Assembly: GCA_036277075.1 (NCBI GenBank)
Contig: DASUNQ010000027.1
Span: 701-64,700, forward strand
Source: Thermoanaerobaculia bacterium
GTDB lineage: Bacteria; Acidobacteriota; Thermoanaerobaculia; Multivoradales; UBA5704
Length of the DNA stretch: 64,000 bases
Reading direction: 5' to 3'
The position numbers and the translations under genes are program-made. Below, in pieces: positions 7,101-26,245 of the stretch; positions within the stretch are counted from its first letter, which is position 1; the number at the start of each line of letters is the position of its first letter. A model generated the notes under the pieces. That model was given only the letters and a program-made list of their open reading frames with translations, was not told the origin of the DNA and ran no database searches.

Positions 7101-7499
7101 GCGCGCGCCAAGCCGCGGGAGAAGGAGGAGGAGAGCACCGAGGCCAAGGCCGCGCACGAGGCGCACAAGGAGCTGGCGAAGGAGGCCAAGCGGGTCAAAG
7201 ACGCGCTCGAGAAGGTGGAGCTCCGCCTTTGGCAGACCGACGAGCCGAAGGGCATCCTCCCGCCCGACGACGCCTTCTCGCAGATCCAGTACGCCCGCTT
7301 CGCCGTCGCCTCTTCCTGGGACGCTCCGACGGCGGCGCAGACGGCGTACCTGGAGCAGGCCGCGACGACGCTGGCCGGGGCGCTCGGCGATCTCAACAAG
7401 CTCTTGACCGGGGAGGTCGCGGCATTCAAGAGGCGGCTCCAGGAGACCGACCTCCGGCTCCTGCCGGAGTTGCCGCCCATCGAGGTGCAAGAGGACTAG
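4164..7499 (+). CDS. Secreted BNR/Asp-box repeat beta-propeller protein (sortilin/Vps10-like), paralog of 261..3347, 1111 aa
   Basis: Signal peptide. Asp-box motifs (STDGGLTF, SLDGGRTW, TTDGGRTW, SHDGGASW, SADGGRTW, SDDGGRTW, TRDGGASW, TTDYGRTW, SLDGGRSW). The N-terminal 600 aa are collinear with the minus-strand paralog (GGVWKSxDGG, VWVGTGE, NGVY, HPDHHALWI and others). The C-terminus is a Glu/Lys-rich coiled-coil-like tail. Confidence 0.8.
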   Translation: MRAMTKLSSLDALLLAAFLAPLPAAAAIDPSLLAGMKARSIGPAAMSGRVAAVEGVPSDPGQLWVGAATGGVWKSTDGGLTFAPVFDDQPVAAIGAVAVSRVNPAIVWVGTGEGNPRNSASVGNGVYRSLDGGRTWKHLGLEATERIHRILLHPTDPDTAWVAALGRAWGENPERGVFKTTDGGRTWGKVLYVDERTGAADLAADPRNPEKLFAAMWEYRRWPWFFRSGGPGSGLHVSHDGGASWRRATEADGLPAGDLGRIGVAVAPSDPRVVYALVEAAESALLRSADGGRTWKKVNTRKDVSPRPFYYADLRVDPENANRVYRLGGALDVSDDGGRTWEALLGWGKVHPDHHALWIHPEDGGFMVNGNDGGIAVTRDRGASWRFVGNLPLAQFYHVRVDQEVPYNVYGGLQDNGSWKGPSAVWENAGMRNQHWQEVAFGDGFDTVPDPRDAMRGYAMSQEGYLVRWDLRTGKRKDIRPAGSPGVPLRFNWNAGIAVDPFAPDTIYFGSQFVHRSTDRGDTWTTISPDLTTDRKEWQRQRESGGLTPDVTGAENFTTIIALAPSPVERGVLWAGTDDGRLHVTRDGGASWTSVEKNVRGVPANTWIPHVLPSTHDAGTAFVVFDDHRRSNWTPYLYRTTDYGRTWTSLATKDLRGYALAIAQDAVDPDLLFLGTEFGLWTSLDGGRSWLPWRHGVPTVSVMDLAVHPRDHDLVIATHGRALYVLDDLAPLRTLSAETLRAPLHLFPASPAVQHQVRQSGSSRFPGHGEFEAENEPYGAVLTYSLNVAGLPHPDVEVERGRTEEEREKELARRRREERAPEAGEEVPAAAVKGPPAAAEEAARAAPEGKPGEGPQVTIEVRDAEGGLVRSFKGPAKLGVNRAVWDLATEAPKSPSTQPSWWGSGGPEALPGTYQVTVKLKDHESSGQVEVLPDPRVPFAAETRRANWEAQRRAGRLQEAVDAAVERVRRTRADLDTLVARAKPREKEEESTEAKAAHEAHKELAKEAKRVKDALEKVELRLWQTDEPKGILPPDDAFSQIQYARFAVASSWDAPTAAQTAYLEQAATTLAGALGDLNKLLTGEVAAFKRRLQETDLRLLPELPPIEVQED

Positions 7500-7811
7500 C
7501 GGCGGGGGATCGCGCCGCAGGGGTGCGGATACACCCCGCCGCCGCGGAAATGCACGCCGCAGGCACGGAGGATCGATCCGCCGCGGCGGAGGTGCACGCC
7601 GCCGCGCCGGCGGTGCACCCCGCCGACGATGCGACGACATCCTCCGGACCTCCGGCGGCATCCGGAGGCGCGGAGGAAACATCCCGACTTCCTCCGGAGT
7701 GCATAGACGATGCAGAATGGTGTATTCTCGTGATGCCGGGAGGCACCACAGGTCCGGCGGAGTGTAGAGCAGCTGCCGGGACGTGTATTTCCACCTCCCA
7801 GGGGAGATCCG

Positions 7812-8039
7812 ATGCGCACGAACATCCATCTCGACGACGACCTGCTCGCCCGCTGTATGCGGTGCACCGGTCTCAAGACGAAGCGGGCGGTGGTGGAGGA
7901 GGGGCTGCGGGCGCTCCTGCGCCTGGACGGCCAGCGGGAGGTGCGCGACCTGCGCGGCCGCCTGCGCTGGGAGGACCGCGCGACGCCGGCGGCTCCGTCC
8001 GCCCCGCGGCCGGGGAGCGGCGATGCGGACCCTCGTTGA
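7812..8039 (+). CDS. vapB: VapB-type antitoxin (type II TA), 75 aa
   Basis: The N-terminus MRTNIHLDDDLLARCMRCTGLKTKRAVVEEGLRALL is typical of a VapB/Rv0623-like antitoxin. GGGGAGA RBS lies 5-6 nt upstream of the ATG. It overlaps the downstream PIN gene by 17 bp in a different frame. Confidence 0.7.
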   Translation: MRTNIHLDDDLLARCMRCTGLKTKRAVVEEGLRALLRLDGQREVRDLRGRLRWEDRATPAAPSAPRPGSGDADPR

Positions 8040-8436
8040 CGCCTCGGTCTGGACCGCCTACTTCAACGGCGCCCGCTCGCCCCTCGTCGATTGGCTCGAC
8101 GCCTCCCTCGGCCGCGCCGCCCTGGTCGTCGCCGACCTGACCCTCGTCGAGGTCCTCCGCGGCATCGCCGACGAGGCCGAGCAGGAGCGCGCCCGCGCCG
8201 CCCTGCTGAAGTTCTCCATCGTCGAGACCGCCGGCCGCGACCTCGCCCTCCAGGCCGCCGACTACCTCCGCGCCCTCCGCACCGCCGCCGCCCTCGAGCC
8301 CCCCCTCCCCCAAGCCCTCATCGCCACCGCCTGCCTCGCCGGCGGCCTCCAGCTCCTCCACCAGGACCCAGCCTACGAGCCGTTCGAGCAGCACCTCGGG
8401 CTGGCGACGCCCGGTGCGGTGGTGGAGGTCTGGTGA
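8023..8436 (+). CDS. vapC: VapC PIN-domain ribonuclease toxin, about 137 aa
   Basis: MRTLVDASVWTAYF...LVVADLTLVEVLRG...LIATACLAGGLQLLHQD: PIN-domain pattern with the acidic residues (D6, E, D) at the expected spacing. It directly follows and overlaps the vapB-like gene. Confidence 0.75.
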   Translation: MRTLVDASVWTAYFNGARSPLVDWLDASLGRAALVVADLTLVEVLRGIADEAEQERARAALLKFSIVETAGRDLALQAADYLRALRTAAALEPPLPQALIATACLAGGLQLLHQDPAYEPFEQHLGLATPGAVVEVW

Positions 8437-9486
8437 CTACAGCGTAAACCTGACCACCGGGCAGATGACCGGCTCGTACGACCCCCGGGGGTCTCCGAGG
8501 CGGATCGCCTCCAGCAGCCGGGAGCTGAGCTCGTCGCGGTGCACGGCGGTCCAGCCGACGCGCTCGTTCCCCGCGATGTAGGGGACGGGGCGGAGCCGGT
8601 TGGGCGGCCGCATGTTGGCGATCTCGTAGTACATCTCGAAGTGTTTGCCAGGACCCGGCGCGGAGGTGCTCGACTGCGCTTCCGCCGCGTGCGCGGCGTG
8701 TCCCTGCGGGACGTTCAGCAGCGCCAGCTCGAGCGTGTTGCCGGCGGGGCGCAGCGCGGCGGCGCGCCCCGCGCCGCCGTCCCAGCGCGACTCGCTGAGC
8801 TCCAGGACGTCGCCCTGCACGCGGATCTCGGCCGCGACCCAGTCGGTGAGCGCCTGGCGATAGCCGTTGCTCTGGTGCGCGGACTTGAGGGACCGGAAGC
8901 TCAGCGGCGGCACCTCGTCTTGCAGGCCGACGAGGCGATAGCTCGAGATCTCGCCGGCGCGCAACCGCAAGCGGGCCGCGATCAAGCCCTTCTCCGGGCG
9001 CGCCCGCAGGACGTCCGGGTCGACGGCGCCCGCCGACGGCTCGATCTTCTCCAACTCGGCGACCCAGCTGAAGTCCTTGCGCTCGGCCGCGCTCCTGGGC
9101 AGGGACTCGCCGGCCGTGCGCTGGTTGCCGAGGATGGCGAGCGGCGGGGCGGCCAGCTCGCTGCGGCCCGCCCCGAAGAGCGCGAGGTCGGAGCCGTCGA
9201 GCCGCCAGGCGGCGCCGGCGTCGATCGCCTGCGCGAGCGCGCCCTGCGCCGCGTCCTCGGCGAGGTCCGGGAAGAGGAACCTCGCGGTCTCGAGATCGGC
9301 GCCGCAGTCGCCCGTGCAACCCCCCGAGCGCGCCAGCAGCAGCGCCTTGTGGGGTTCGATGCTGGAGCCGTCCGAGACGGTGTAACCGTCCGCGGCGTCG
9401 AGCAAGAGGACGGTGATCTCGCGGCCGTCCTGGCTCGGCACGAACGCGATCAAGCCAACGAAGAAGATGCGCACGATGAAGTCCAT
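8437..9486 (-). CDS. Hypothetical secreted/membrane-anchored protein, 349 aa (co-operonic with the upstream TPR-CHAT gene)
   Basis: Hydrophobic N-terminal segment (IVRIFFVGLIAFVPSQ). GC3-rich codon usage. It starts 21 bp after the stop of the 9508..12822 gene on the same strand. I recognise no domain. Confidence 0.5.
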   Translation of the reverse strand: MDFIVRIFFVGLIAFVPSQDGREITVLLLDAADGYTVSDGSSIEPHKALLLARSGGCTGDCGADLETARFLFPDLAEDAAQGALAQAIDAGAAWRLDGSDLALFGAGRSELAAPPLAILGNQRTAGESLPRSAAERKDFSWVAELEKIEPSAGAVDPDVLRARPEKGLIAARLRLRAGEISSYRLVGLQDEVPPLSFRSLKSAHQSNGYRQALTDWVAAEIRVQGDVLELSESRWDGGAGRAAALRPAGNTLELALLNVPQGHAAHAAEAQSSTSAPGPGKHFEMYYEIANMRPPNRLRPVPYIAGNERVGWTAVHRDELSSRLLEAIRLGDPRGSYEPVICPVVRFTL

Positions 9487-9507
9487 GGGATAGCCCTCCT
9501 TGAATGG

Positions 9508-12500
9508 TCAGTTGGGTGGGAATGGCGACGAGGCGTGGCCGACGACTTGGAAGGGGGCCCAGACGAGGACCAGCTCGGCCTTGGTACCCTGCTTGCGGAT
9601 CACCTCGAGCTGCGCCTCCCGCAGGGCGCGGGCGGCGTCCTCCCCGGCCGCGAGGTGCTCGTGGAACGACACCAGCAGATCGGCGGAGGAGGAGTCGCTG
9701 ACGTTCCAGAGCGTGCCGACGACCGCCGGCACGCCGCCGGCGAGGAACGGCCGCACCAGCGGCGCGAGGCCCGACGATCCGATCGACCGGCCGCCGGCCG
9801 AGCTGCAGGCCGAGAGCACGACGAGGCGCGTCTTCCGCAGCTCCAGCCGGCTCAGCAGCTCTTCGGCGGTGAGCGCTCCCGAATGGGTCGCCGACCTCGC
9901 GAGCAGGAGGACCGACCGCGAGGGGGCGTCGTCGTTGGCGACGGCGTGGCCGGCGAAGTGGACGACGGTCTTGGCCGCCGCGCGGCGGAGGAAGCTGTCC
10001 ACCGTCGCCTGCTCCGGCGCGAGCCTCTCGGCCAGCGGCCCGTAAAAGCGCTTGATCGCGGCGACCTCGTGGCCGGCCCACTCCAGCGGCTCGAGGTCGC
10101 GCGCGACCTCCAGCTCCTTGTCGAAGACCGGATCGCCTACGAGCAGCGCGCTGGCGGGCTCGCCGCGGAGCTCGCGGTCGCGCAGCAGCGAGAAGACGTA
10201 GAGCGTCGCGCTGGGCGCCACTTCGATCGGGAAGTCTTCGACCAAGTGCCGCTTCGCCCGTCGGTCGCGTAGCGCCGCGAGCGGCAGACCGTGGAGCGCT
10301 CGGTCCGGGACGAAGACGAGCCGCTCGATCTGCGAGCGGTCGAGCCGGGCGAGCGGGGCTGCGAGAAGGGCGGCGAAAGCCCGCTCGAGAACCTCGACGA
10401 CGCTCTCGGTGTCGCCCGTCTCCCTCGCGGCGCGCAGGTCCTCGACCCACTCCGCGATGGTCCGGTGATCGATCTTCGGGCGCAGCGACTCGAACTGCTC
10501 GCGCCCGACGATCCAGATCACGAGCTGCGGCTCCTCCCCCTTCTCGTCGAGGAAGTAGAAGTCGAGAAGGAAGGTCCCGGCCGGGAGCTGCGCCTGGACC
10601 TCGGCGAGCCCGAGCGGCTCGCGCTGCGCGATCAACCGCTCGAATCTTCTGGGCGCCGAGCGGAGCCGCAAGACGAGGTCCAGCGGCTCCAATGCGCGCG
10701 CGCGCTCGGCATAGGCGAAAGCTTCGGCATCCCGCTCCTGATCCATCAGCAGCCGGACGAGTTGCTGATGTGCCTCGCCGAAGCGAGAGAAATAAGGCCC
10801 CCAGCGCTCCTCGCTCTCCCCCGGCCGTCGGAGGTCCAGGACCCTCTCTTCCTCGGCAGCGATCTCCTCCAGGCCCGCCTTGAGGGCCTCCTCCGCGCCG
10901 GCCGGATCGCGCCTGTTCCGGTGGGCGCGCGCCAGTTGGAAGTGGAGGCTGGCGCGATAGGTCCTGAACTGCTCCGGCGGGTAGAGATCGATGGCATCAC
11001 GCAAGAGCTCGATCGCCGCCTGCGGATCGCTCGCGAGTAGGGTCCTCGCCTCCGCCTCCTTGGCCCGTGCCAGCAACGCGTCTCTCACACCTTCGTCCAC
11101 GGCCTTGTCCAAATACAGATTCGCCTCTTGCACGTCCGCTTGCGCCGCCTCGTGGCGATCGAGAAAGGCCAGGAGCAACCCGCGCCCCCGCAACGCGATC
11201 CCGAGGTTTTGGCGCAGCCCGGCCGCCAGCTGGTCGTCCGGCGGCAGCGGCGCTAGGTCCTCCCGCAGGCGGTCGATCGATTCGGTCTGCATCAGGAGGG
11301 CGGTCTGCGGCTCATCGAGGGCGAGGGCCGCCAAGGCGGCTTCGCCCAGGATGTAATGCTGGCGCTCCGTCTCGACGACGGAGCGGAGGTCGCGGAGCGT
11401 CTGCCAGGCCTGCCGCCACGCGAGCTCCCGATCCCCCAGCTCGCGGGCGGCTCCCGCCAAGCGCGCGCGGACGTTGGCCACGCCCTCGGGGTCGCGGACC
11501 CGCCGGTACGCTGCGAGGGCCTCTTCGTAGACTTCGAGGGCCTCGGGGAAAAGGCCCTTCGCCACCAGGCAGAGCCCGCGCGACCAGAGGACCTTCCCCA
11601 GCAACGACCCGGAGCCGGAGCGCCGCGCCGTCGCCTCGAGCGGCTCGAGCATGGCCAAGACTCGCGGGCAGTGCGCCGGCAAACGGCGGTAGAGAGCGGC
11701 GGCGGCGCCGATCTCCGCGCTGGTGCGCAGCGGGCTGCCCGCCGCCGCCAGCTCCGCGCCGGCTTGCCGATATCGCTCCTCTTCGTCCGGCGCGGTGATC
11801 TCTCGTGAGAGCTGCCGGGCCTCGCCGAACAGCGCGTGGCCTCTGGCGAGCGCGCGCAGCGTCGCGGCGTCGCGCCGCCGGTCGGCGTCGGCGACGACCG
11901 CGACCACGTCGCGGAGGTAGCGGTCGCCGGTCGCGCGCGCGACCGCGCCGGCGATCGCCTGCGCTTCGACCAGACGCGGCGTCGCCCGCGGGTCGCCGGC
12001 TTCCGTCATCCGCGCCCAGGCCGGCAGCACCTGCTCTTCGACCCAGCGTTGCGCCGCTCCGGGGAAGGGCGCGACGAGCTGGGCGACGGCCTCGCGATCG
12101 CCCAGTCGGACCGCTTCGGGGAGGCGCAGCCGGTTGAGCGGCCAGACGGTCGCGGCGGTACGCAGTTCCTGGCGCTCGAGCCGGTCGCGGCGGCTCCTCC
12201 CCGCGGCGGCCCACCGCGGATCGTCGGGGCGGCCGAGGTAGATCGCCCACGTCCGGGCGGCTTGCCACGGCAGCTGGAGGAGCTCCTCCGCGAGTGCCAG
12301 GTTGAACAGCGCCTCGGGAGGCGGATCGGGCGCCGCGACGGCCGTGCGGGCCACGCTGAGCGCGCGCAGCAGGTCCGACGGGCGGTCCTGCCGCCGCGCC
12401 CGCACCATGAAAGCGGCGGCGAGGTCGCTCCAGACGCGCGGGTCGGGTGCCGGCTGATGGGCCAGCGCGGTCAAGGTCGTGATCGCCCCGTCCAGGTTCG

Positions 12501-12822
12501 ATTGCCGCACCACCTGCTCCAGCGCCTCGAGGTGTTGCCTTCCGGTCTCATCGCACGCCTCCGAGGACCTAGACACCGGCGGCGGCGGATTGTGGGAAGG
12601 CGGACAGGCCACCTCGCCGAGGAGCCGTTTGCCGCCTGGCCACTCCTCGCATCGCTCCCAGGCGAACCCGCCGGAAAGGCGCGGCTCGACCCAACGCCTC
12701 TCGGCGAGCTCGCCCAGCCCTTCCTCGAGACAGTGCGTCCGGCGATCGGGCTCCGCACCACACCCGGCGAGCACGGCAAGGCAACCGATCGCAGCGAGAC
12801 CCTGCGGAAAAAGATTCGGCAT
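9508..12822 (-). CDS. TPR-repeat lipoprotein with C-terminal CHAT (caspase-like) protease domain, 1104 aa
   Basis: Lipobox LAVLAGC near the N-terminus. Long helical-repeat (TPR-like) middle region. C-terminal CHAT signature with catalytic His (VVHFAGHAV) and Cys (LVVLSACSSAGG). Confidence 0.8.
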   Translation of the reverse strand: MPNLFPQGLAAIGCLAVLAGCGAEPDRRTHCLEEGLGELAERRWVEPRLSGGFAWERCEEWPGGKRLLGEVACPPSHNPPPPVSRSSEACDETGRQHLEALEQVVRQSNLDGAITTLTALAHQPAPDPRVWSDLAAAFMVRARRQDRPSDLLRALSVARTAVAAPDPPPEALFNLALAEELLQLPWQAARTWAIYLGRPDDPRWAAAGRSRRDRLERQELRTAATVWPLNRLRLPEAVRLGDREAVAQLVAPFPGAAQRWVEEQVLPAWARMTEAGDPRATPRLVEAQAIAGAVARATGDRYLRDVVAVVADADRRRDAATLRALARGHALFGEARQLSREITAPDEEERYRQAGAELAAAGSPLRTSAEIGAAAALYRRLPAHCPRVLAMLEPLEATARRSGSGSLLGKVLWSRGLCLVAKGLFPEALEVYEEALAAYRRVRDPEGVANVRARLAGAARELGDRELAWRQAWQTLRDLRSVVETERQHYILGEAALAALALDEPQTALLMQTESIDRLREDLAPLPPDDQLAAGLRQNLGIALRGRGLLLAFLDRHEAAQADVQEANLYLDKAVDEGVRDALLARAKEAEARTLLASDPQAAIELLRDAIDLYPPEQFRTYRASLHFQLARAHRNRRDPAGAEEALKAGLEEIAAEEERVLDLRRPGESEERWGPYFSRFGEAHQQLVRLLMDQERDAEAFAYAERARALEPLDLVLRLRSAPRRFERLIAQREPLGLAEVQAQLPAGTFLLDFYFLDEKGEEPQLVIWIVGREQFESLRPKIDHRTIAEWVEDLRAARETGDTESVVEVLERAFAALLAAPLARLDRSQIERLVFVPDRALHGLPLAALRDRRAKRHLVEDFPIEVAPSATLYVFSLLRDRELRGEPASALLVGDPVFDKELEVARDLEPLEWAGHEVAAIKRFYGPLAERLAPEQATVDSFLRRAAAKTVVHFAGHAVANDDAPSRSVLLLARSATHSGALTAEELLSRLELRKTRLVVLSACSSAGGRSIGSSGLAPLVRPFLAGGVPAVVGTLWNVSDSSSADLLVSFHEHLAAGEDAARALREAQLEVIRKQGTKAELVLVWAPFQVVGHASSPFPPN

Positions 12823-12857
12823 AAGCCCTCCACGGACTCTCGCCCGCGTGCTCTAAA

Positions 12858-13466
12858 ATGGTGCCGGTGAGTCGGCAAGTGAACGACGACTGGTTCGCGG
12901 ATCTCTACCAGCGTTTTTACAGCTCTATTTTCGCCTACTTCGTGCGCATCGGTTTTCCGCGCGAGGACGCGAGGGACCTCGCACAAGAGACATTCTTGCG
13001 TGTCTATCGCGGTATGGAGCGTTATGAAGGCCGCGGCGACTTCGCCTTTCTGAAAAAGACCGCGGTCCGCGTCGGCATCAATGCGATTCGCGACAAGAGG
13101 ACGGCGAAGCGGCAGGCCGTCGTCGTCCCGCTCGACGAGCTGCCGCACATCGCCGCCGGCGCCGAGAACCCGGCCGGCGAACCACAGCCGACGCCCGAGG
13201 CCGATGCCGCGCTGCACGAGGAGACGGTCGCGCGCCGAAGCTGGCTGAAACAGGCGATCGCCGCGCTGCCGCCCGCACAACGCGATTGCCTGCTGCTCCG
13301 GCTCGGCGGGCTCAAGTACCGTGAGGTCGCGCGCGCGATGGGCGTCCCGATCGATACAGTGAAGTCGCGTCTCCACGAGGCGCGCAGGACGCTGAGCGAG
13401 GGGTACCGCGCGGGTGCCGGAGGGCTCGAGTTGCCGCCGGAGCTCGAGGACGACGACCATGATTAG
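12858..13466 (+). CDS. ECF (sigma-70 family group IV) RNA polymerase sigma factor, 202 aa
   Basis: Region 2 motif (DLAQETFLRVYR) and region 4 motif (QRDCLLLRLGGLKYREVARAMGVPIDTVKSRLHEARRTL). It overlaps the next gene by 8 bp (ATGATTAG). Confidence 0.85.
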   Translation: MVPVSRQVNDDWFADLYQRFYSSIFAYFVRIGFPREDARDLAQETFLRVYRGMERYEGRGDFAFLKKTAVRVGINAIRDKRTAKRQAVVVPLDELPHIAAGAENPAGEPQPTPEADAALHEETVARRSWLKQAIAALPPAQRDCLLLRLGGLKYREVARAMGVPIDTVKSRLHEARRTLSEGYRAGAGGLELPPELEDDDHD

Positions 13467-14217
13467 GAAGAGCGACTGGGCCGCCGTGTACCGCGAGCTC
13501 CTCGCCGACGGCCGGCAGAGGCTCGGAGAGGCGCCGACGGCCGAGGAGCTCGTGGCCTACGCGCACGGCGAGCTCCCGCCGGCCGGGGCCGGTCGCGTGC
13601 AGGAGTACCTCGCTCTTCATCCCGAGCTGGCGCGCGCTCTCGCCGAGCCGGTGTCGGAGTCGGATCGAGCGGAGCCCGGCGCCCCCGGCTTCCTGTCCGC
13701 CGAGGAGATCGCGAGCGACTGGACCGCCCTCCAGGCGCGGCTCGAGCCGGCGCGTCCGCGCCGGGACCGCCTCTGGCGTCCCCTCGCCCTGGCGGCCTCG
13801 CTCCTCGCCGTCGTCTCCGGCGGGCTGTACGTGCAGTCGCAGCGCGAAGTGCGGGAGCTGCGGGAGCCGCGCGCGAACCCCGAGCAGCGCCTGCTGCTGC
13901 CCGACGGGGGCCGCGGCGCCGCGGGGCCCGACATCCTGCTGCCGCCGGCGGCCGATCACTTCCTCCTCACGCCGGTGCTCGTCGGACACCCGGACTTCGC
14001 CGACTACCGGCTCAAGATCATCGACGTCAGCGGTCGGGAGCCGCGCGTGATCTGGGACCGGACGGGGCTCCGGCGCCTCAGCAACGACACCTTCGAGCTC
14101 TGGGTGCCGCGCGCTTTCCTCTCGTCCGAGGAGTACCGGCTCGAGCTCTACGGCATCGACGAGAGCCGCAAGGAAACGCTGCTCGCCAAGTACACCCTGC
14201 GCCTACCGCCGGCCTAG
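13459..14217 (+). CDS. Putative anti-sigma factor (single-pass membrane), about 252 aa
   Basis: It immediately follows the ECF sigma gene with an ATGATTAG overlap. The N-terminal domain carries an anti-sigma-like H-x3 motif region (ELVAYAHGELPPAGAGRVQEYLALHPEL). There is one TM helix (WRPLALAASLLAVVSGGLYV). Confidence 0.65.
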   Translation: MIRKSDWAAVYRELLADGRQRLGEAPTAEELVAYAHGELPPAGAGRVQEYLALHPELARALAEPVSESDRAEPGAPGFLSAEEIASDWTALQARLEPARPRRDRLWRPLALAASLLAVVSGGLYVQSQREVRELREPRANPEQRLLLPDGGRGAAGPDILLPPAADHFLLTPVLVGHPDFADYRLKIIDVSGREPRVIWDRTGLRRLSNDTFELWVPRAFLSSEEYRLELYGIDESRKETLLAKYTLRLPPA

Positions 14218-14774
14218 TCGCGCACCTGCCGATCGTAGGCGTCGAGCAGAGGCCCCAACCGGCGCGCGTCGGACTGCCCGGGCGGGATCGTCCGCTCGAC
14301 GAACAGGCGGAAGAACTCGACCGCCTTCCGCTGGTGGCCGGCGGAAGAGCCCGGCGTCGCGGGCTCCGACCGATCCAGCACGGCGCTCGCGTAGGCCAGC
14401 GAGAAATCGCGCAGGTCGAATGCCGCCCCGGCCTGCTGTTGCAACCGCGCCTCGCGCACTACGAAGTCTCTGATCTCGGCCAGGTGCCAGAAGACGAGGC
14501 CCTCGTCGTTGGCCGCCGCGAGCGCCTGCAGACCCTCCACCCGCTGCTGCAGCGTCGAGCGGTCGTTTTCCAATTGGCGGGTTACGGCGCGAAACTGCTG
14601 CACCCGCTCGCGGTGCGCCTGCAGCTCGCTCTCCTTCTCGAACACCGGCTTCACGCTGTGGACGTACGCATAGAAACCGAAGGCGAGCGCCGCGATGGTG
14701 GCGGCCCTTTGGAAGATCTCGATCCAGGAATCCTCGCCGAGGAAGGTGCGCCGGAAGGGCTCTCGCGTCGCCAT
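14214..14774 (-). CDS. Hypothetical membrane-anchored coiled-coil protein, about 186 aa
   Basis: ORF 14214..14876 trimmed to the internal ATG (MATREPFRR) so that it does not overlap the divergent caspase gene. It has a TM helix (AATIAALAFGFYAYV) followed by a coiled-coil-like region. It is convergent with the anti-sigma gene. Confidence 0.45.
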   Translation of the reverse strand: MATREPFRRTFLGEDSWIEIFQRAATIAALAFGFYAYVHSVKPVFEKESELQAHRERVQQFRAVTRQLENDRSTLQQRVEGLQALAAANDEGLVFWHLAEIRDFVVREARLQQQAGAAFDLRDFSLAYASAVLDRSEPATPGSSAGHQRKAVEFFRLFVERTIPPGQSDARRLGPLLDAYDRQVRD

Positions 14775-14865
14775 TCTTGCGCTTATAAGAACACGGGAAC
14801 CGGAGCTCTGTTGGTCCTCCCCGGCGCTTTGACCCCGTCCGCCTCCGGGCGTGTCTTTCTTCCGC

Positions 14866-17199
14866 ATGAGGATCAACAGCCGGCGGAAGCTGTGCGTCTT
14901 GGTCGCCGCCTTGGGTCTCTTCGTGTGCGGTCGCGGCGACTGGACCCTGACCGCGGCCGTCGTGAGCCCGCGGCGCCACGCATTCCTGGTCGGAATCGAC
15001 GACTACGAGGGGCCTCCCGGGAACCGCCTCAAGGGCGCGGCGGACCGCGGCTGGCGCAATCTCGACGGCGCCGTCAACGACGTGCGCCTGCTGCGCGAGA
15101 TGCTCGTCGCCCGCTACGGCTTCGCGGCGCGCGAGGTCGCGACCCTGACCGACCGCGCCGCCACGCGGGCGGCGATCCTGCGCGGGATCGAAACGCACCT
15201 CGTGCGGCAGGCCGGCCCCGGCGACGTCGTGCTCTTCTACTTCTCGGGTCACGGCTCGCAGGTGCGCAACTCCCGCTCCGACGAGCCGGACGGCCGGGAC
15301 GAGACGCTGGTGCCGGCCGACTCCCTCGCCGGCGCGCCCGACATCCGGGACAAGGAGCTGCGGCGGCTGTTCAACCGCATCCTCGACCGGGGTGCCCGCC
15401 TGACGGTCGTCGTCGACGCTTGTCACAGCGGTTCGGTCGCGCGCGGCCTGCCCAGCGGCGCGCTCTCCCGGGGCATCGACCTGGACCCGCGGGACGTCGC
15501 GGACGGCTCTCCGCACGGCCCGCGGCCGGAGGAGCGCGGGGCGCTCGTCCTCGCGGCGGTCCAGGACTTCGACCGCGCCTGGGAGAGCTGGGACGAAGCC
15601 GGTGAGCCGCACGGCGCGTTCTCGCTCGCCCTGGTGCGGGCGATGCGGGACGCCCTCCCGGGGGAACCGGCGGAGGAGACCTTCCTGCGCGCGCGCGCCC
15701 GCCTCCAGGCCGCGCGCCGCTTCCAGGAGCCCGTCCTGACCGGCAATCCGGCGGCGCGGCTCGCTCCCTTGCTGGGTTCGCGCCCGGCGGCGCGGAAAGA
15801 CCGTGCCGTGGTCGCCGTCGAGCGCGTCGAGCACAGCGGGACGGTGGTCCTCCAGGGGGGCTGGGCGCACGGGCTGGCGGTCGGCAGCCAGTTGCGGGTC
15901 AGCGTACCGGGGCAGGGCGAAGGGGTGCGGCTCGTCGTCACCGCGATGAAGGGGCTCGGCCGCTGCGAAGCCCGCGTCGCGCCGTCGCCGTCGCGGCGCG
16001 CGGCGCCGGCGGCCCCCCTGGCCGGGGCGCTGGCGGAAGTCGTCGGCTGGGAGGTGCCGCCGATGCCGCCTCTCCGCGTCTGGATGCCGCGCGCCGAGGG
16101 GGGCGCCTTCGACGCGGCCGTCCGTCTGGCCGGCGAGCTCGCCGCCGCGGCGCCGCGCCGCCGCATCGGCTGGGTGAGCGACCCGACCGAGGTAACGCCG
16201 ACGCACCTCCTCCGCTGGCGCGCCGAAGGCTGGGAGCTTCTCGCGCCGCGAGAGCTGCCGGCAAGTCTCGGCCCGGCGGCCGACGCGGCCGCGGTGCTGG
16301 CGCGCATCGACGCTCCCCGCTCCGCTCTCTTCGTGCAGCTGCCGGCGCCGGCGGACCTGCCGCTCGAGGTCGGCCCGGGCACGGGCCAGGAGGGTGTGAC
16401 GCCGGCGGCGGAGCCCGAGCAGGCCGACTACGCCCTGGTCGGCCGGCTCGCCGGTCGCGCGGTGGAGTACGCCTGGGTGCGTCCCGAAGTCGGGGCCGCC
16501 GACCGGCGGCGGAGCGGGCTGCCGTTGCGCAGCGACTGGGTCGAGCTCGCGCCCCGGCGCTCGGCCGAGGCGGTCCTCGATCTCGCCCGGGCGGTGCTGC
16601 GGCTGCGCCGGGTCCAAGGGTGGTATCGCCTCGAGTCGCCGGTGACGGAGGCCTTCGCGTACCGCTTGGCGCTGGCCCGGCCCGACGACCTGCGCGAGGT
16701 GAGCGACGGCGTGCTGCGCGGCGGCGAGAGGCTCGGCCTCGCCTTGCGCTTGCGGGCGCCGCAGCCGGGCGCGGTGCGCCCCCGCTACGTCTACGCCTTC
16801 ATGATCGACAGCCACGGCCGGAGCGTCTTGCTCTTCCCCGCCACAGGACCGCTCGAGAACCGCTTCCCGACGCACCGACCGGGAGCAGCCTCCGAGCCGC
16901 CCGCCACGATCCCGCTGGGATCGCCGGACCTCTTCACGGTGAGCGAGCCGTTCGGCGTGGACACCTATTTCCTTTTGACTAGTGAAGAGCAGCTCCCGTA
17001 CCCGTGGGTGCTCGAATGGGAGGGGGCGCGAACGCGGGAGCCGCGCCCGCTGTCGCCGCTCGAGGAGCTGGTGTTCGCCACCAGCGGGGTCGCCCGCTCG
17101 GCCGCGGTGCAGGTGCCGTCGAGCTGGTCGCTTGAGCGCAGGGTCTTCGAATCGGTGCCCGCAGAGGCGGGCGGCAGGGGAGGGCGAAGCGGTGCGTAG
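14866..17199 (+). CDS. Caspase-family (peptidase C14) lipoprotein with large C-terminal extension, about 777 aa
   Basis: Signal/lipobox (LGLFVCG). The caspase p20 catalytic dyad is in canonical context: His in VVLFYFSGHGSQV and Cys in TVVVDACHSGS. It is preceded by HAFLVGIDDY, the typical start of the caspase core. Confidence 0.8.
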   Translation: MRINSRRKLCVLVAALGLFVCGRGDWTLTAAVVSPRRHAFLVGIDDYEGPPGNRLKGAADRGWRNLDGAVNDVRLLREMLVARYGFAAREVATLTDRAATRAAILRGIETHLVRQAGPGDVVLFYFSGHGSQVRNSRSDEPDGRDETLVPADSLAGAPDIRDKELRRLFNRILDRGARLTVVVDACHSGSVARGLPSGALSRGIDLDPRDVADGSPHGPRPEERGALVLAAVQDFDRAWESWDEAGEPHGAFSLALVRAMRDALPGEPAEETFLRARARLQAARRFQEPVLTGNPAARLAPLLGSRPAARKDRAVVAVERVEHSGTVVLQGGWAHGLAVGSQLRVSVPGQGEGVRLVVTAMKGLGRCEARVAPSPSRRAAPAAPLAGALAEVVGWEVPPMPPLRVWMPRAEGGAFDAAVRLAGELAAAAPRRRIGWVSDPTEVTPTHLLRWRAEGWELLAPRELPASLGPAADAAAVLARIDAPRSALFVQLPAPADLPLEVGPGTGQEGVTPAAEPEQADYALVGRLAGRAVEYAWVRPEVGAADRRRSGLPLRSDWVELAPRRSAEAVLDLARAVLRLRRVQGWYRLESPVTEAFAYRLALARPDDLREVSDGVLRGGERLGLALRLRAPQPGAVRPRYVYAFMIDSHGRSVLLFPATGPLENRFPTHRPGAASEPPATIPLGSPDLFTVSEPFGVDTYFLLTSEEQLPYPWVLEWEGARTREPRPLSPLEELVFATSGVARSAAVQVPSSWSLERRVFESVPAEAGGRGGRSGA

Positions 17200-20100
17200 A
17201 GGCGGGCGCGCGATCGGCGCGCTCCTTCTGGCCGGCGCGCTGCTGGCCGGCGGCCCACTGTACGCCGAGGAGACGCGTCCGCTCGAGCCCGACCGCGCCG
17301 AGACCCTGGTCGACGCGGCCGCCGCACACATCGCCGGCGGACGGATGGCCGAGGCGGAGGCCGCCCTCGGCGAGGCGCTGCCCCTCTTCCAGGCCCGGCA
17401 GGACCGGCGCGGCGAGGCGTTCTGCCGTCTCCTGCAGGGGCTGGCCGATACCGCCGCCGGGCGGGACGCCGCCGCCGTCGCCAGCTTCGAGCAGAGCCTG
17501 CCGGTGCTCGAGGAGAGCGGCGAGCTCATGACCGCGTGGCTCGTGTACGTGGCGCTCGCCGAGGTGGAGAAACGCAACGGACATACCGAGAAGGCGATCG
17601 CGCACTACGAGCGCGCTCTCGCCGTGGTCGGCAATATCGAGGACCCCTCAACCAAGCTGTCGGTTCAGGGATTCGCGCGGCTGGGCAAGGCGTTCGGCGT
17701 GCCGGGGATCGACCTGGGGCAGCTCGAGCTCGTCGTCACCATCGCGCGGTCGATCTGGGCGCGCTTCGCCGAAGCGGCCGCCCGCGACGGCTACGCCGGC
17801 GTCCTGATCGAAGGGTACGAGTTGGAGCGGGCGGAGGCCGAGCTGGCGCGATCGACGGAGCTGTCCCGTCTCTTCGGCGGGCTCCTGGACGGCTCCATCG
17901 CCGCCCGCCGCGGCGACCTGCGCAGGTACCAGTGGAGGCTCGACGAAGCGCGGCAGGAATACGAGACCGCTCTCGCCGCGGCGCAGCAGCCCTTGCCTCT
18001 GCCCTTCCCGCGTAGTGAACAGGAGGTCGTGAGCCTGCTCGGCCGGCTCGCCGAGATCGAGCTGTTGAGCGGCCGCCTCGAGCAGGCGCTGGCGTGGAAC
18101 GACAAGGCGCTCGCGCTGGTCCGCGGCAAGGACCGGAAGCGCGAGGCGTCCGTGCTCGACGACCGCGCCGAGCTCTTCCGCCGCAGCGGCAGACTGGGCG
18201 AGGCCGAGGCGCTGTTCAACGAGACCCTCGCGATCGCCACGGAGACGAACGACCTCCTGGGGCAGGTCACGGCCCTCTCCGATCTCGGCACCGTCGCCAT
18301 GCTTCGCGGGGCTTACAAGGAGGCGGCGGTGCACCTCGAGAAGGCTGCCTCGCTCGGCAAAAGCCTCGACGAGCCGCTCATTGAAGCGGGAGTCTTGATC
18401 ACCTTGTCCGAGGTCTACCTGCTCCTCGAGGCGCCGGGCAGCGCCCGCGCGACGATCGAGGGCGCGCAACACCAGGCGAAGCAGAGCGAGTTCCCCCTCG
18501 CCACCGCCCTGAGCGAGGCGGTCGCGGCGCTGGAGCGGTTCCTTTCGGGGAAAGGGTCGGCGGTCGAGCTGCTGGAGCTCTACGACTCGTTCTGGCGCTT
18601 GCCGGAGGCCGGCACGTTGATGATCGATCCCGCCTTGCGAGCGCTCTTCCTCGCGGTCGTGCGCTTGGAGACCACGGGCGACGTCGCCGACCCCGGATTG
18701 GTCGCCGCCCTCGCCGCCTCGAAGGGGCCGCAGCCTTTTCCCTACGCCTCGATCATGGCGCTGTTCCTGCGCGGCCGTCTGCACGCACTGGCCGGGGAGT
18801 GGCAGGAGGCGCGCGATCTCTGGGCGCGCGCGCTCGACGAGGCGCGACGGGTCGAGCAGAAAGATTACGCCGCCATGCTCTCGGCCGGGGTCGCCCTCAT
18901 CTACTGGAAGCAGGGACAACCGCAGCCCGCGATCGAACAGCTCTCCCGCGCGGTCGCGCTGTTGGAGGAGCAGAGCAAGGGGCTGCAGGTGGAGGAGCTG
19001 CTCAGCGCCTACCTCGGCAGCCAGCGCCGGTGGTTCTACGAGCTCCTGGTCGAGATGCTCGTGCAGCAGGGGCGCACGGCCGAGGCGTTCGACTACGCGG
19101 AGCGGGCCCGCGCCCGCGCCTTGCTGCAGCTCCTCGGGAATCGGCGTCTCAAGCCGGCGGGGGGGGCCGACGCGCAGCTCGTGGCGGAGGCCGAGGCGCT
19201 GCGCATGGCTATCGCAGACTGGGAGCGGCAGGAGGTCGTCGCCGAGGGGCCGCAGCGGTTGGCGCTCGAGAACGACCTGCGGAACGCTCGCGACCGCTAC
19301 GCGCACCTGCTGGTGCGCCTCAAGGTCTCGAACCCGGCATACGCTGCCATCACCAGCGTGGAGCCGCTGACCGCTGTCGAGGTGCAGCGCGCCCTGCCGC
19401 CGGACACGGCGCTGATCAGCTATTTCGTGACGCGCTCCACCACGCACGCGTGGGTGGTCGACCGGGAAGCTTTCCACTACGTCGGGCTGCCCATCGGTGC
19501 CGCCGAGCTGCGCCAGGCCGGCGATGACTGGGCGAAGGAGCTCGGCGGCCGGAGCCGCGGCGCGACGCCTCACGGGGGCGCCGCCTTGAGCCCGCAACGC
19601 GCGGAGCATCTCTACCGGGCCCTCGTCGCGCCGCTCGTCCCACACCTCCGGCATCGCCGCCTGCTGCTCATTCCGCACGACGCGCTCCACTACATCCCTT
19701 TCGCCGCGCTGCGCGAGCCCGCGAGCGGGCGCTACCTGATCCAGGACTACACGCTGGCCTACGCCCCGAGCACCAGCGTGCTGCCCTTCCTGCGCGGGGA
19801 GCAAGCGCCGATTGCCGGACGGGCGCTGGTGCTGGGCGCGCCTGAGGCGCTCGATCCGCGCTGGGGGCGGCTGCCGGCCGCGCGCGAGGAGGCCAAGGCC
19901 GTGGCTCGGCTCTTCGGCGCGGTGCCGCTGCTGGACGCTGAGGCGCGGGAGAGCCGTCTCTACGACTTGCGCGGCGAAGTCGACCTCCTCCACATCGCCG
20001 CCCACGGGTTCTACGAGCGGGCGAGCCCGCTGTTCAGCCGCCTGGTCTTAGCACCGGGGGACGGCCACGACGGCAACCTCGAGGTGCACGAGATCTTCGC

Positions 20101-20449
20101 CGGCCTCGACCTCGCCGGGGTCGACCTCGTCGTCCTCTCCGCCTGCCGGACGGGGCAGGGCGAGCGCAGCGGTGGCGACGAGATCACGGGGCTGACGCGG
20201 GCGTTGCTGTACGCCGGGACCCCGGCGGTGATCTCCACCCTCTGGGACATCGACGACGCGGCCTCGGCGCTGCTCATGCAGGAGTTCTACCGCCGCTTGC
20301 TCGAGGGCGTTCCTGCCGCCGAGGCCCTCCAGCAGGCGCAGCTCAGCCTGCTGCACCACCCCGGTTACGAGGCCCCCTTCTTCTGGGCGGCGTTCAGCCT
20401 GACCGGAGACCCCCGCGGACAGTGGCAGCGCGCCGGGTCGCCTCGCTGA
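17192..20449 (+). CDS. TPR-repeat protein with C-terminal CHAT (caspase-like) protease domain, about 1085 aa
   Basis: GTG start overlaps the caspase-gene stop (GTGCGTAG). Signal-like N-terminus (AIGALLLAGALLAGGPLYA). Many TPR-like helical repeats. CHAT catalytic His (LLHIAAHGF) and Cys (LVVLSACRTGQG). Confidence 0.8.
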   Translation: MRRGGRAIGALLLAGALLAGGPLYAEETRPLEPDRAETLVDAAAAHIAGGRMAEAEAALGEALPLFQARQDRRGEAFCRLLQGLADTAAGRDAAAVASFEQSLPVLEESGELMTAWLVYVALAEVEKRNGHTEKAIAHYERALAVVGNIEDPSTKLSVQGFARLGKAFGVPGIDLGQLELVVTIARSIWARFAEAAARDGYAGVLIEGYELERAEAELARSTELSRLFGGLLDGSIAARRGDLRRYQWRLDEARQEYETALAAAQQPLPLPFPRSEQEVVSLLGRLAEIELLSGRLEQALAWNDKALALVRGKDRKREASVLDDRAELFRRSGRLGEAEALFNETLAIATETNDLLGQVTALSDLGTVAMLRGAYKEAAVHLEKAASLGKSLDEPLIEAGVLITLSEVYLLLEAPGSARATIEGAQHQAKQSEFPLATALSEAVAALERFLSGKGSAVELLELYDSFWRLPEAGTLMIDPALRALFLAVVRLETTGDVADPGLVAALAASKGPQPFPYASIMALFLRGRLHALAGEWQEARDLWARALDEARRVEQKDYAAMLSAGVALIYWKQGQPQPAIEQLSRAVALLEEQSKGLQVEELLSAYLGSQRRWFYELLVEMLVQQGRTAEAFDYAERARARALLQLLGNRRLKPAGGADAQLVAEAEALRMAIADWERQEVVAEGPQRLALENDLRNARDRYAHLLVRLKVSNPAYAAITSVEPLTAVEVQRALPPDTALISYFVTRSTTHAWVVDREAFHYVGLPIGAAELRQAGDDWAKELGGRSRGATPHGGAALSPQRAEHLYRALVAPLVPHLRHRRLLLIPHDALHYIPFAALREPASGRYLIQDYTLAYAPSTSVLPFLRGEQAPIAGRALVLGAPEALDPRWGRLPAAREEAKAVARLFGAVPLLDAEARESRLYDLRGEVDLLHIAAHGFYERASPLFSRLVLAPGDGHDGNLEVHEIFAGLDLAGVDLVVLSACRTGQGERSGGDEITGLTRALLYAGTPAVISTLWDIDDAASALLMQEFYRRLLEGVPAAEALQQAQLSLLHHPGYEAPFFWAAFSLTGDPRGQWQRAGSPR

Positions 20450-23231: not shown

Positions 23232-23236
23232 CCCCC

Positions 23237-26200: not shown

Positions 26201-26245
26201 CACGGGTCTCCGGACGGTACTCCACAGCATGAGACGGGTACCTGA
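23237..26245 (+). CDS. Divergent tubulin/FtsZ-superfamily GTPase-like protein with about 750-aa C-terminal extension, about 1002 aa
   Basis: The N-terminus has a T1-loop-like LSIYLGGTGILVG and a T4-loop-like LTASACGGTGAGMILDAAALV (the tubulin/FtsZ GGGTGSG signature). It is followed by a long mostly alpha-helical, Arg/Leu/Glu-rich extension. The start is taken as the ATG 6 nt after the upstream stop; an in-frame GTG at 23228 (GTGA overlap) is an alternative. The 1909-aa ORF 20516..26245 is mostly the out-of-frame shadow of the vWA gene. Confidence 0.65.
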   Translation: MITLTERSFPQPTLSIYLGGTGILVGDSLLTMLETLPDAERAFVEAFFIDSQEPAIRDHERARHYCYGDLGVFSQPIYEGFTERRFPENLGVNPVVSSCDGCGVTRIFGAASLVACRDDFTDLVERAVARLVKHGASTQPLQVFLTASACGGTGAGMILDAAALVRHVCRTRIGSNSRIFLFLLGPTAFFEDPAINLREDQRHRMQASTYALLKELHHFAQGNEFVSAYRLRDEIVRVSNSADDDRLFDWVFFIDGRAEQGAPRSLAEVTWTVAEAQLHLCVSEVGRKVAESLPNQREERVRSFGLHFVHPDNKHRLSPAARDQLARSSRTTFLASLAVRSVRFPAEEIKSWFRWRWVHEALDKTVDRRGVGGGVALVDEFDRLLGYDDGDVLEEGLMKELGLRAEQLLQVVAERDLSRGMAEGPSPAMPLEGMIQGAGELLDVAASLLTELREEPAAPAPGAERTGGPLSGAELLAAALPRWSAGLAAGLAAGGRSAERLWSLAWDPVEGRGLRWLDAFLTHTVDLLTQLAQRGVRRPQLADLEMRLDEARQLHQWLARSYQRENRTLGFRWRAVRSRLAKLALLDDKQGPASDALQRKAKRLARQLADLRGELLVQRRAQLLAALAPQAWLEAARLLRRWREEALLPTLTVAENALALAHTQRELASEGLAVHQGEGRRGRWYALSTVSVADDELLAQLSRRLEDRVRVEDLVLAPLEGRGLSRERHRLSIDTFRRTDARAVVDILHAHVAAETTGHLAIVDGGWNLEEARDRLRRTAAKVLDEGAQPLVRFARAAVGLQLQGYFLAPREFVLPRPFGRTVGQMTPLDSRDPLRLGVVSFAFGIPPNALYGMDELFAQYTNLLGDQERNRGVHDRYPLHVFRGAAESFDEPFSPLTLEMDDVFLHSLLQVARELGIDDGRRIVLDIRQFDNTKHELEQDWNRLIELAEKVVQRLDCRPEEVDRLFRNGEYSAIAHFYNSRRRRGGGHGSPDGTPQHETGT

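Follow-up and report, generated by a model that had tools for sequence, protein, structure and literature searches.

A conserved divergent module of an ECF sigma factor, a putative anti-sigma factor and caspase-like proteases in Thermoanaerobaculia, with a compact control region and a possible role as a protease-gated switch

Protease-gated sigma factors of the extracytoplasmic function (ECF) type have recently become a theme in bacterial immunity, represented by Craspase, CalpL/T/S, SAVED-CHAT/PCaspase and DdvA/DdvS. For DdvA of Myxococcus xanthus, an anti-sigma factor with a fused periplasmic TPR-CHAT protease, self-cleavage in the juxtamembrane linker has been proposed as the site-1 step, with RseP acting afterwards, and the DdvS/DdvA pair controls an island that combines CRISPR genes with a cyclic oligonucleotide-based antiphage signalling system (CBASS) (PMC11506125). 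In the type III-B system of Haliangium ochraceum, SAVED-CHAT cleaves PCaspase and the operon also encodes a sigma factor, PCc-sigma (bioRxiv 10.1101/2023.06.23.546230); cleavage of Csx30 by Craspase releases CASP-sigma (summarised in bioRxiv 10.1101/2023.06.23.546230). In the ECF54 group the neighbours of the sigma gene encode CHAT, subtilase and carboxypeptidase proteins, and the group is described as being without an anti-sigma factor (PMC8999054). The present analysis concerns a stretch of 64,000 nucleotides from a Thermoanaerobaculia contig (phylum Acidobacteriota; GenBank DASUNQ010000027.1, positions 701 to 64,700 of the forward strand), called here the window (WIN), and within it the genes of an ECF sigma factor and of a CHAT protease that lie head to head. 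Related loci are labelled L001, L002 and so on, L001 being a close relative whose sigma factor is 92% identical to that of the window.

The genes at issue belong to a conserved five-gene module of Thermoanaerobaculia, an architecture that can be stated with high confidence. It comprises the ECF sigma factor (195 residues, 12879-13466, plus strand), a putative single-pass anti-sigma factor (252 residues, 13459-14217, plus strand, recognised from synteny and an AlphaFold2 model), a lipoprotein CHAT protease, CHAT1 (1104 residues, 9508-12822, minus strand), a 349-residue partner protein, unk349 (8437-9486, minus strand), and a caspase-like protease with Peptidase_C14 and DUF4384 domains, a probable lipoprotein (14866-17199, plus strand). 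The window has a G+C content of approximately 72% and many spurious open reading frames, and the real genes were picked from the third-position GC content (GC3 frame analysis), which backs the frames of CHAT1, unk349 and the sigma factor as well as those of the anti-sigma gene and of the genes that follow it, from 14214-14774 (minus strand) to CHAT2 and the VWA and tubulin-like genes described below. Together with the Pfam matches and, for unk349, synteny, it confirms the basic description in a first-pass annotation of this DNA, namely that a CHAT gene at 9508-12822 and a 349-residue gene are divergent from an ECF sigma gene.

Related loci were gathered by exact-protein look-up, a genome scan and a metagenome scan, and the window proteins were mapped on them by tblastn. 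The first-pass annotation had asked whether orthologous loci keep the CHAT gene divergent to the sigma gene, and they do: a CHAT1 ortholog is divergent from and adjacent to the sigma gene in all the non-redundant Thermoanaerobaculia/Acidobacteriota loci with enough upstream sequence (43 of 43), down to approximately 32% identity of the anti-sigma proteins and through a complete change of the flanking genes, which are mostly housekeeping. Full-length CHAT1 orthologs (35-90% identity) are found in all loci, an unk349 ortholog lies directly 3' of CHAT1 in every related locus, and the start of the anti-sigma gene overlaps the end of the sigma gene throughout (by 8 nt in the window, 13459 versus 13466, and by 4-8 nt in all loci). 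Caspase orthologs (44-95% identity) are present in every locus whose contig reaches far enough. Some close the divergent operon at its 3' end, behind a small gene of approximately 135 codons; others lie downstream of the anti-sigma gene, the position to which the window gene has moved. Given this conservation, the comparison of sequences places the arrangement far beyond chance.

The sigma protein matches Sigma70_r2 (3.3e-10) and Sigma70_r4_2 (3.5e-16) in Pfam and TIGR02937 at 76.4 bits (cut-off 42.9), and it belongs to the ECF (group 4) sigma-70 factors; its scores against the NCBIfam equivalog models are all far below the cut-offs. Its frame offers four candidate starts, ATG 12858, GTG 12861, GTG 12867 and GTG 12879. 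The first of them had been taken initially, leaving a spacer of only 35 bp to the CHAT1 start at ATG 12822, with the proviso that one of the two starts might be mis-assigned. The proviso was justified: ATG 12858 is a CTG in L001, and in L002 a 1-nt deletion between the equivalents of ATG 12858 and GTG 12867 puts it out of frame. The gene callers give a sigma factor of 195 residues in both L001 and L002, as does the NCBI annotation of this contig (HEX5757834.1, start GTG 12879), and ATG 12858 sits within a -10-like TAAAAT (12854-12859). Further, the counterpart of GAGTCGGCAA-gtg in distant relatives is, by alignment, GGATCGGCCG-atg, and that of GAGTCGGCAAgtg is GGATCGGCCGatg in the clade with 42-bp spacers considered below, and GGTGAG (12866-12871), 7 nt ahead of GTG 12879, is a possible Shine-Dalgarno sequence. 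These several lines place the sigma start at GTG 12879, with GTG 12867 as the alternative. The spacer is therefore 56 bp long (12823-12878, against the 35 bp obtained from a start mis-assigned by 21 nt), or 44 bp, its lower bound, if GTG 12867 is used. The CHAT1 start at ATG 12822 is secure on the sequences compared: there is no start codon further upstream, the codon is required for the signal peptide seen in the orthologs, and a Shine-Dalgarno GGAGG 4 nt ahead of it (12827-12831, minus strand) is conserved in L001 and L002.

The correction also bears on the reading that had gone with the 35-bp spacer, in which the divergent CHAT protein was a second TPR-CHAT protease under the same regulation as a main locus of caspase and CHAT2 downstream. 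CHAT2, itself a TPR-CHAT protease (17240-20449, start approximate, plus strand; CHAT 1.8e-73, TPR_12 1.1e-35, the TPR match being clearly above its cut-off), has orthologs only in L002/L003 among the related loci, as does the first gene of the following group encoding a VWA domain (tblastn), while CHAT1 accompanies the sigma and anti-sigma genes in every locus. CHAT1 is therefore, on this distribution, the core partner of the sigma/anti-sigma pair, and the CHAT2/VWA genes of the supposed main locus are largely accessory; the ranking of CHAT1 as the second protease was the wrong way round. The claim of common regulation is not supported either, the spacer between the sigma and CHAT genes of the window being without the motif that precedes the caspase operon (14830-14859). 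The older reading as a whole has become very improbable, although the frame does open with ATG 12858 and one automated caller alone (Logan) did produce the corresponding form of 202 residues.

With start codons curated in the same manner across loci (for CHAT, the codon nearest the hydrophobic core of the signal peptide; for the sigma factor, the start preceding a conserved F..LY motif), 17 independent loci have a divergent spacer of exactly 42 bp, and a further 6 have one of 39-46 bp. A spacer of 171 bp given by a gene caller for L004 was an error, the call having cut off the signal peptide. The 42-bp spacers carry a dedicated motif, TAAGATACGCG, and conservation is higher in their core, caTAaGATACgcG.TTCgcG, than in the coding sequence on either side. 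The pattern TA[AC]GATAC has 36 matches in 634 kb, both strands counted, 30 of which lie within 120 nt upstream of a sigma gene and on the sigma strand only, and TAAGATACGC occurs once per locus; from this distribution the motif is a dedicated cis-element rather than a generic promoter hexamer.

The equivalent in the window is the promoter-like CGTGCTCTAAAAT at 12847-12859 on the plus strand, facing the sigma gene and containing the TAAAAT hexamer. It is invariant in the window and L002, one base off in L001 (TAAACT), and in L011, L012 and L016 it is matched in the alignment by CGTGTCTATAG, which also stands upstream of the sigma gene; GCTCTAAAAT is unique within the window. This DNA has few AT-rich TAnnnT hexamers (17 in 64 kb, both strands). 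At least 8 of the 17 are suitably oriented and closely followed by a gene start, several of them at a distance of 8-15 nt, which suggests that they serve as -10 elements with short leaders. If so, TAAAAT at 12854-12859 would set the start of the sigma transcript near 12866, leaving GGTGAG as its Shine-Dalgarno sequence. The same hexamer is 32 bp from the CHAT1 start codon, and a CHAT1 promoter on the other strand would fall at roughly 12835-12870, that is, on the same DNA as the sigma promoter, which it would overlap almost completely. As the CHAT1 leader must cover GGAGG and the sigma -10-like element is at 12854-12859, the 56-bp spacer cannot hold two non-overlapping promoters, and the original argument that the spacer was too short for two independent ones survives the change in its length. 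The accompanying proposal of an overlapping control region proved partly true: the fixed 42-bp spacer and its motif lend it comparative support, and the comparative data favour a compact control region shared by the CHAT1 and sigma operons.

That the adjacency is meaningless, the two operons being independent units brought close only by leaderless or short-leader transcripts and tight packing, is scarcely credible in this light. Other divergent pairs in the window are indeed just 26 and 71 bp apart, and several gene starts follow a TAnnnT hexamer at 7-15 nt, as tight packing would have it. The arrangement is nevertheless conserved in each of the 43 loci while the flanks change, and neither the fixed 42-bp length nor the dedicated motif would be expected of mere packing.

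In the 42-bp clade the top strand of the element reads TAAGAT, a -10-like hexamer facing the sigma gene, and the bottom strand reads CGTATCTTA, which is 9-10 nt from the CHAT start and has no Shine-Dalgarno sequence. CGTATCTTA is one base off CGTGTCTT, the -10 half of the ECF-type motif found before the caspase gene, but it faces CHAT. Bidirectional promoters with a shared -10 element are known, in which a symmetric TAnnnTA lies between start sites at a distance of 18 (or 10 or 23) bp from each other (Warman et al. 2021; PMC12825309). They likewise consist of one short AT-rich element between divergent genes, and TAAGATA of the 42-bp clade fits TAnnnTA; they differ in that the present motif is longer and locus-specific, with an ECF-like CGT core on the bottom strand, and in that TAAAATG of the window is asymmetric. 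A short palindrome follows the spacer motif (CGCG-N3-CGCG or TTC..GAA) and is modestly enriched, with a mean arm of 4.0 versus 3.18 in shuffled sequences. The inverted repeat after TAAGATAC varies in sequence and keeps its symmetry (CGCGA-T-TCGCG, TTTCC/GGAAA and TTCG/CGAA are examples) in L006, L014, L021, L030, L072, L075 and others, and could be the operator of some regulator. An RNA hairpin in the sigma leader was discarded, the stems being too short for an RNA structure. Two leaderless mRNAs read from a single palindromic ECF promoter would predict a spacer of approximately 42 bp; GTGTCT has no match in the right half of the actual spacer, and the idea was set aside as speculation.

CHAT1 matches PF12770 with an E-value of 8e-60 (203 bits against a Pfam gathering cut-off of 24). 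The first description of it as a TPR lipoprotein with a CHAT protease holds for the lipobox and the CHAT domain; the TPR matches stay below the Pfam cut-offs (TPR_12, 28.9 bits against 30.1; TPR_2, 24.4 against 27), the N-terminal region being helical and TPR-like and the CHAT domain C-terminal. The protein begins with a lipoprotein signal, MPNLFPQGLAAIGCLAVLAGC, whose lipobox LAGC takes up residues 18-21, the Cys being Cys21 (pattern [LVI][ASTVI][GAS]C, read from the sequences); a conserved Cys after the hydrophobic core occurs in nearly all CHAT1 orthologs, nearly all of which have a lipoprotein signal peptide. FAGHA and LSACSS were spotted in the translation as candidate catalytic motifs. 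A phmmer search with CHAT1 against PDB sequences gave no matches, and neither CHAT1 nor CHAT2 has a Pfam match to the SAVED domain. The caspase (PF00656, 1e-22) shows SGHG and DACHSG motifs in its translation, and its relatives carry the lipoboxes LIAC, LLAC and LFAC, the window protein having an atypical LFVC.

The putative anti-sigma protein is the same as one listed as hypothetical in a Thermoanaerobaculia metagenome-assembled genome and has 55 homologs, all from Acidobacteriota or metagenomes. It has no Pfam match, the PDB profile search was empty, and the NCBIfam anti-sigma model NF052375 matches it weakly (9.4e-5, below the cut-off). Its AlphaFold2 model (predicted local distance difference test, pLDDT, 84.6) has helices at residues 4-62, a transmembrane helix at 106-135, a disordered segment at 135-139, then a short strand with a DGGRG loop, and an Ig/FN3-like beta sandwich at 167-248, for which Foldseek returned generic beta sandwiches alone. 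In an alignment of 53 sequences P137 and R152 are invariant and L146, D149, G150 and G153 near-invariant, so that residues 146-153 form a near-invariant juxtamembrane motif, LLPDGxRG. The alignment has no conserved N-terminal Cys and hence no HxxxCxxC or CHCC zinc ligands of the ZASD type.

The closest known system is DdvS/DdvA of M. xanthus. Common to both are the ECF sigma factor, a single-pass anti-sigma factor (here putative), a CHAT protease of the periplasm (here by prediction) that combines a region of helical repeats (here TPR-like) with a His/Cys dyad (here a candidate dyad), a flexible juxtamembrane linker as the candidate cleavage site, and ECF-type promoters with a CGT -10 core, at least one transcript starting at or near the start codon (promoters and starts being predicted here). 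The window module is nevertheless not a member of the type, because its protease is not fused to the anti-sigma factor, no zinc-binding anti-sigma domain is present and there is no CBASS/CRISPR regulon. Unlike in DdvA, CHAT is a separate lipoprotein gene on the divergent strand, and the 252-residue anti-sigma factor, lacking the zinc-binding Cys/His motif, has only a small Ig-like periplasmic domain; the caspase and the 349-residue partner are obligatory here, and the module is found in Acidobacteriota, whereas DdvA-like proteins are reported only in Myxococcota and one Comamonas. Classical regulated intramembrane proteolysis (RseA/DegS/RseP, RsiW/PrsW/RasP) shares the single-pass anti-sigma factor and a site-1 cut near the membrane followed by site 2, as proposed here; it differs in that the candidate site-1 enzyme of the window, CHAT or caspase, would belong to the cysteine proteases of clan CD and not to the serine or metalloproteases, with no linked site-2 gene. 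Craspase (gRAMP/Cas7-11, Csx29 TPR-CHAT, Csx30, Csx31 and RpoE/CASP-sigma; PMC10028731) offers the parallel of a TPR-CHAT protease cleaving a protein that sequesters a sigma factor, an action only proposed here, but it is cytoplasmic and RNA-guided, and the window is without homologs of Cas7-11, Csx30 and Csx31; CHAT2 matches the Csx29 model weakly (30 bits, cut-off 300). With ECF54 the module shares the conserved CHAT neighbour and proteolysis as the proposed regulatory step, unlike which an anti-sigma-like gene is always present here.

Downstream of the anti-sigma gene, a bipartite motif called Element B (14830-14859, plus strand) precedes the caspase gene as an ECF-type promoter-like site. 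In the window it reads TGACCC-N14-CGTGTCTTTC, and across loci its form is GACAC-N14-[CG]GTGTCT; the GTGTCT half ends 9 nt ahead of the caspase ATG 14866, which has no Shine-Dalgarno sequence. Element B is found upstream of the caspase gene in 11 loci, with 2 further partial matches, exactly where the caspase is a transcription unit of its own; loci in which the caspase comes directly after the small gene in the CHAT operon lack it. In three relatives (L011, L012 and L016) it also stands upstream of the sigma gene itself, a position weight matrix (PWM) built from the caspase sites giving 23-27 bits in L016 and L011 and a pattern match identifying it in L012; further full sites lie upstream of exported proteins in the same three loci. 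A PWM built without the sites of the window clade ranks 14830-14859 first in the whole window (16.1 bits). On these positions Element B would be an ECF-dependent promoter; being an inverted repeat, with both halves perfect between divergent caspase genes in L004 and L007, it could possibly be the operator of a dimeric regulator instead. Its geometry, with a -35 xACAC and a -10 CGT core, resembles that of the DdvS promoters, GTAA-N16-CGT (PMC6061681).

The second-best PWM match of the window (13.1 bits, with the PWM taken from other clades) lies inside CHAT1, at codons 76-85 on the sense strand (12568-12597, minus strand, CCCAC-N14-GGTGTCT), and L011, L012 and L016 share its position, its N14 spacing and a TCT codon that is rare for serine. 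The site may act as an internal promoter, perhaps of a CHAT1 without signal peptide and of unk349, or it could be a coding coincidence arising from a conserved H...VS peptide. A candidate in the 5' coding region of CHAT in a distant clade, ACAC-N13-GTGTCT, was rejected, the spacing being 2 nt short and the match stemming from conserved KDT...VW codons. As to the spacer element, CGTGCTCTAAAAT of the window looks like a degenerate right half of Element B. The identity of the 42-bp spacer element with Element B was dropped, the two being alike only in their -10 halves and in one subclade (L036, L045, L048 and L055), and a link between the spacer motif and Element B stands as a hypothesis.

These elements can be combined into a split version of the DdvA/DdvS switch with positive feedback. 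CHAT1 in the periplasm, alone or with the caspase, would cut the anti-sigma factor in or near the juxtamembrane segment that contains P137 and LLPDGxRG, as the site-1 cleavage; intramembrane proteolysis would next free the sigma factor, which would transcribe Element B promoters (GACAC-N14-CGTGTCT). In the window the regulon would be the caspase-CHAT2-VWA operon, and in relatives it would further include the sigma gene itself and additional exported proteins. As an explanation of the locus as a whole, the conserved module with a shared control region and a protease-gated switch is the best available, and is put forward tentatively, at a little under an even chance; the release of the sigma factor by periplasmic proteolysis, argued by analogy with the known systems, is a possibility to be held with more reserve. 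Gene content, synteny, start codons, motifs and predicted topologies come directly from the sequences, and the promoter assignments, the cleavage and the regulon are inferred from them.

The most direct competitor takes the proteases as outputs only, with the sigma/anti-sigma pair sensing an envelope signal through the Ig-like domain and through an unrelated site-1 protease, and with the CHAT, unk349 and caspase genes as no more than its regulon. ECF sigma genes often adjoin their own target genes, Element B does precede the caspase gene, and CGTATCTTA is close to the CHAT start in the 42-bp clade, all of which such a circuit would have. What makes it somewhat unlikely is that the CHAT/caspase-sigma systems characterised all have the protease acting upstream of their sigma factor, that the predicted periplasmic site of the proteases matches that of the anti-sigma sensor domain, and that the invariant juxtamembrane motif is otherwise unexplained so far. 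Input and output roles are, moreover, not mutually exclusive.

A second competitor is suggested by the most distant anti-sigma relatives, which form a sister clade (L064, L065, L071, L076 and L078) with a co-directional order of Cas6, CHAT-SAVED, ECF sigma, anti-sigma and lipoprotein TPR-CHAT genes. In L064 (6322-20692) this block, in which the protein with the SAVED domain is encoded at 7313-9241, is followed by TIR-SAVED and four RAMP genes that mark a type III CRISPR locus. The module could on this basis be an anti-phage or programmed cell death device and not a pathway for envelope stress in general, in which case a phage-derived periplasmic cue would activate CHAT and caspase and the sigma factor would induce effectors (caspase, CHAT2, VWA and tubulin-like proteins). 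The control of a CBASS-CRISPR island by DdvS/DdvA points the same way, as do the match of the caspase to its PADLOC model (5.5e-25), the weak match of CHAT1 to BovA in PADLOC and, in L009, a DarT/NADAR pair next to the module. The window is nonetheless devoid of cas, CBASS or other recognised defence genes except for a VapBC pair, CBASS and type III CRISPR genes having been found only around L064 of the sister clade; PADLOC is silent on the sigma, anti-sigma, unk349, VWA and tubulin-like genes and makes no system-level assignment; and the genes that flank the module differ among loci and are mostly housekeeping. A defence function is, with these facts on both sides, likewise somewhat unlikely for the window module. 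The sister clade also ties the module to known systems: its type III CRISPR/SAVED-CHAT context recalls the DdvS regulon, and its CHAT-SAVED gene directly upstream of a homologous sigma/anti-sigma pair recalls SAVED-CHAT/PCaspase, as does the encoding of a CHAT and a C14 caspase with a sigma factor, in the logic of a two-protease cascade. Unlike in that cytoplasmic system, the window proteins lack SAVED, a source of cyclic oligonucleotides and CRISPR genes, and CHAT and caspase bear export/lipoprotein signals that predict a periplasmic location.

unk349 gave no matches in Pfam, NCBIfam or PADLOC. Its AlphaFold2 model is of high quality (pLDDT 92.5; predicted template modelling score, pTM, 0.92) and mostly beta, with the N-terminus forming a buried beta hairpin, from which it follows that the protein has no signal peptide; Foldseek found no relative of the model in the PDB (best E-value 0.2). 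A profile search gathered a superfamily of 1318 cluster representatives for which there is no Pfam model. Three distant members were examined (L081, 6411-7433; L082, 704-1774; L084, 2062-3036), and their neighbours are a CHAT and a trypsin-like protease, C11 and C14 proteases, and a CHAT protease with a divergent zf-HC2 anti-sigma-like gene.

A more far-reaching form of the protease-gated switch can be drawn from this family and from the promoter elements. The module would then be a phylum-specific split DdvA, in which two periplasmic clan-CD lipoprotein proteases and a partner of new fold make up a site-1 cascade for the anti-sigma factor, and in which the single element of the 42-bp clade would act as the sigma -10 on one strand and as an ECF-type -10 for a near-leaderless protease operon on the other, the expression of sensor and regulator being coupled in this way. 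Sharing ancestry with the sigma/anti-sigma pairs of the type III CRISPR SAVED-CHAT loci, it would be a free-standing descendant or a precursor of an antiviral signalling module. Taken jointly these statements are unlikely to hold.

Several observations weigh against the switch and its shared control region. unk349, being without a signal peptide, fits poorly in a purely periplasmic pathway. The divergent spacer is long (120-270 bp) in L011, L012, L016, L019 and L061, and in L057 (12 bp), L009 (18 bp) and L008 (very short or overlapping) it is without the motif; short divergent spacers are, in addition, not unusual in the window as judged from first-start calls of open reading frames. Scanning of 12500-13200 for canonical sigma-70 promoters returned nothing, nor were terminators found there. 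A site of the GGAAC-N16-17-CGTT type, which the first-pass annotation had proposed to look for at 12780-12900, is absent, and the looser GAAC-N15-18-CGT has no site near there and a window-wide count below chance. The 42-bp spacer element scores at most 7 bits against the Element B PWM, which is not significant, and CGTGTCTAT also arises from the RVY codons of the sigma gene, in-gene matches to the motif being unreliable. Finally, the window motif faces the sigma gene while the CGT-containing strand of the 42-bp clade faces CHAT, and the two clades may be wired differently.

As to the surroundings, a gene for a membrane and coiled-coil protein of 186 residues lies between the anti-sigma and caspase genes (14214-14774, minus strand, probable start ATG 14774); it has no family matches in Pfam or NCBIfam, and its homologs are limited to WIN, L001, L002/L003, L018 and L019. 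It is separated from the caspase gene by a second short divergent spacer (14775-14865, 91 bp) with Element B on the caspase side, and the palindrome CTTATAAG (14783-14790) in it yields a minus-strand TATAAG 7 nt ahead of ATG 14774, a leaderless-type geometry. Downstream of CHAT2 are two VWA-domain genes (20538-23231 and 26229-28073) and between them that of a Tubulin_2 protein (PF13809, 1005 residues, 23228-26245), a trio that recurs in L002/L003. On the other side of the module, a convergent PIN-domain (VapC-like) gene (7783-8436, its true start probably near 8020) ends exactly at the end of the unk349 gene, and in relatives a VapB antitoxin gene lies immediately upstream of the PIN gene. In L009 the DarT/NADAR (DarG-like) toxin-antitoxin or defence pair is directly downstream of the anti-sigma gene (10825-12022), and in L008 (9462-9481) there is a head-to-head overlap of 8-20 nt at the starts of the sigma and CHAT genes, TAAGATAC being absent. 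The closely spaced divergent pairs elsewhere in the window are those of a RecQ-like helicase and an unknown protein of 195 residues (39104/39131, 26 bp apart) and of LolA-like and sortilin/BNR-like proteins (4092/4164, 71 bp apart, the interval containing a TAAACT hexamer), both distances being from first-start calls. Divergent regions as compact as these seem to be common in this genome.

How the protease and the anti-sigma factor meet is an unsettled matter in this field, and the trigger of DdvA is open. The present module keeps its protease separate from the anti-sigma factor and adds a caspase and unk349, which should permit reconstitution of the proposed site-1 step in trans from defined components, with a clearly conserved candidate for the cleavage segment at hand. 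The fixed 42-bp spacer with its locus-specific motif would be a natural control element, compact and bidirectional, that lends itself to direct tests. The unk349 family, whose members adjoin CHAT and other clan-CD proteases, is a candidate for a new regulator or substrate of bacterial caspase-like proteases. The module would thus carry the theme of protease-gated sigma factors to Acidobacteriota, in a non-CRISPR version that is linked to a CRISPR-embedded sister clade.

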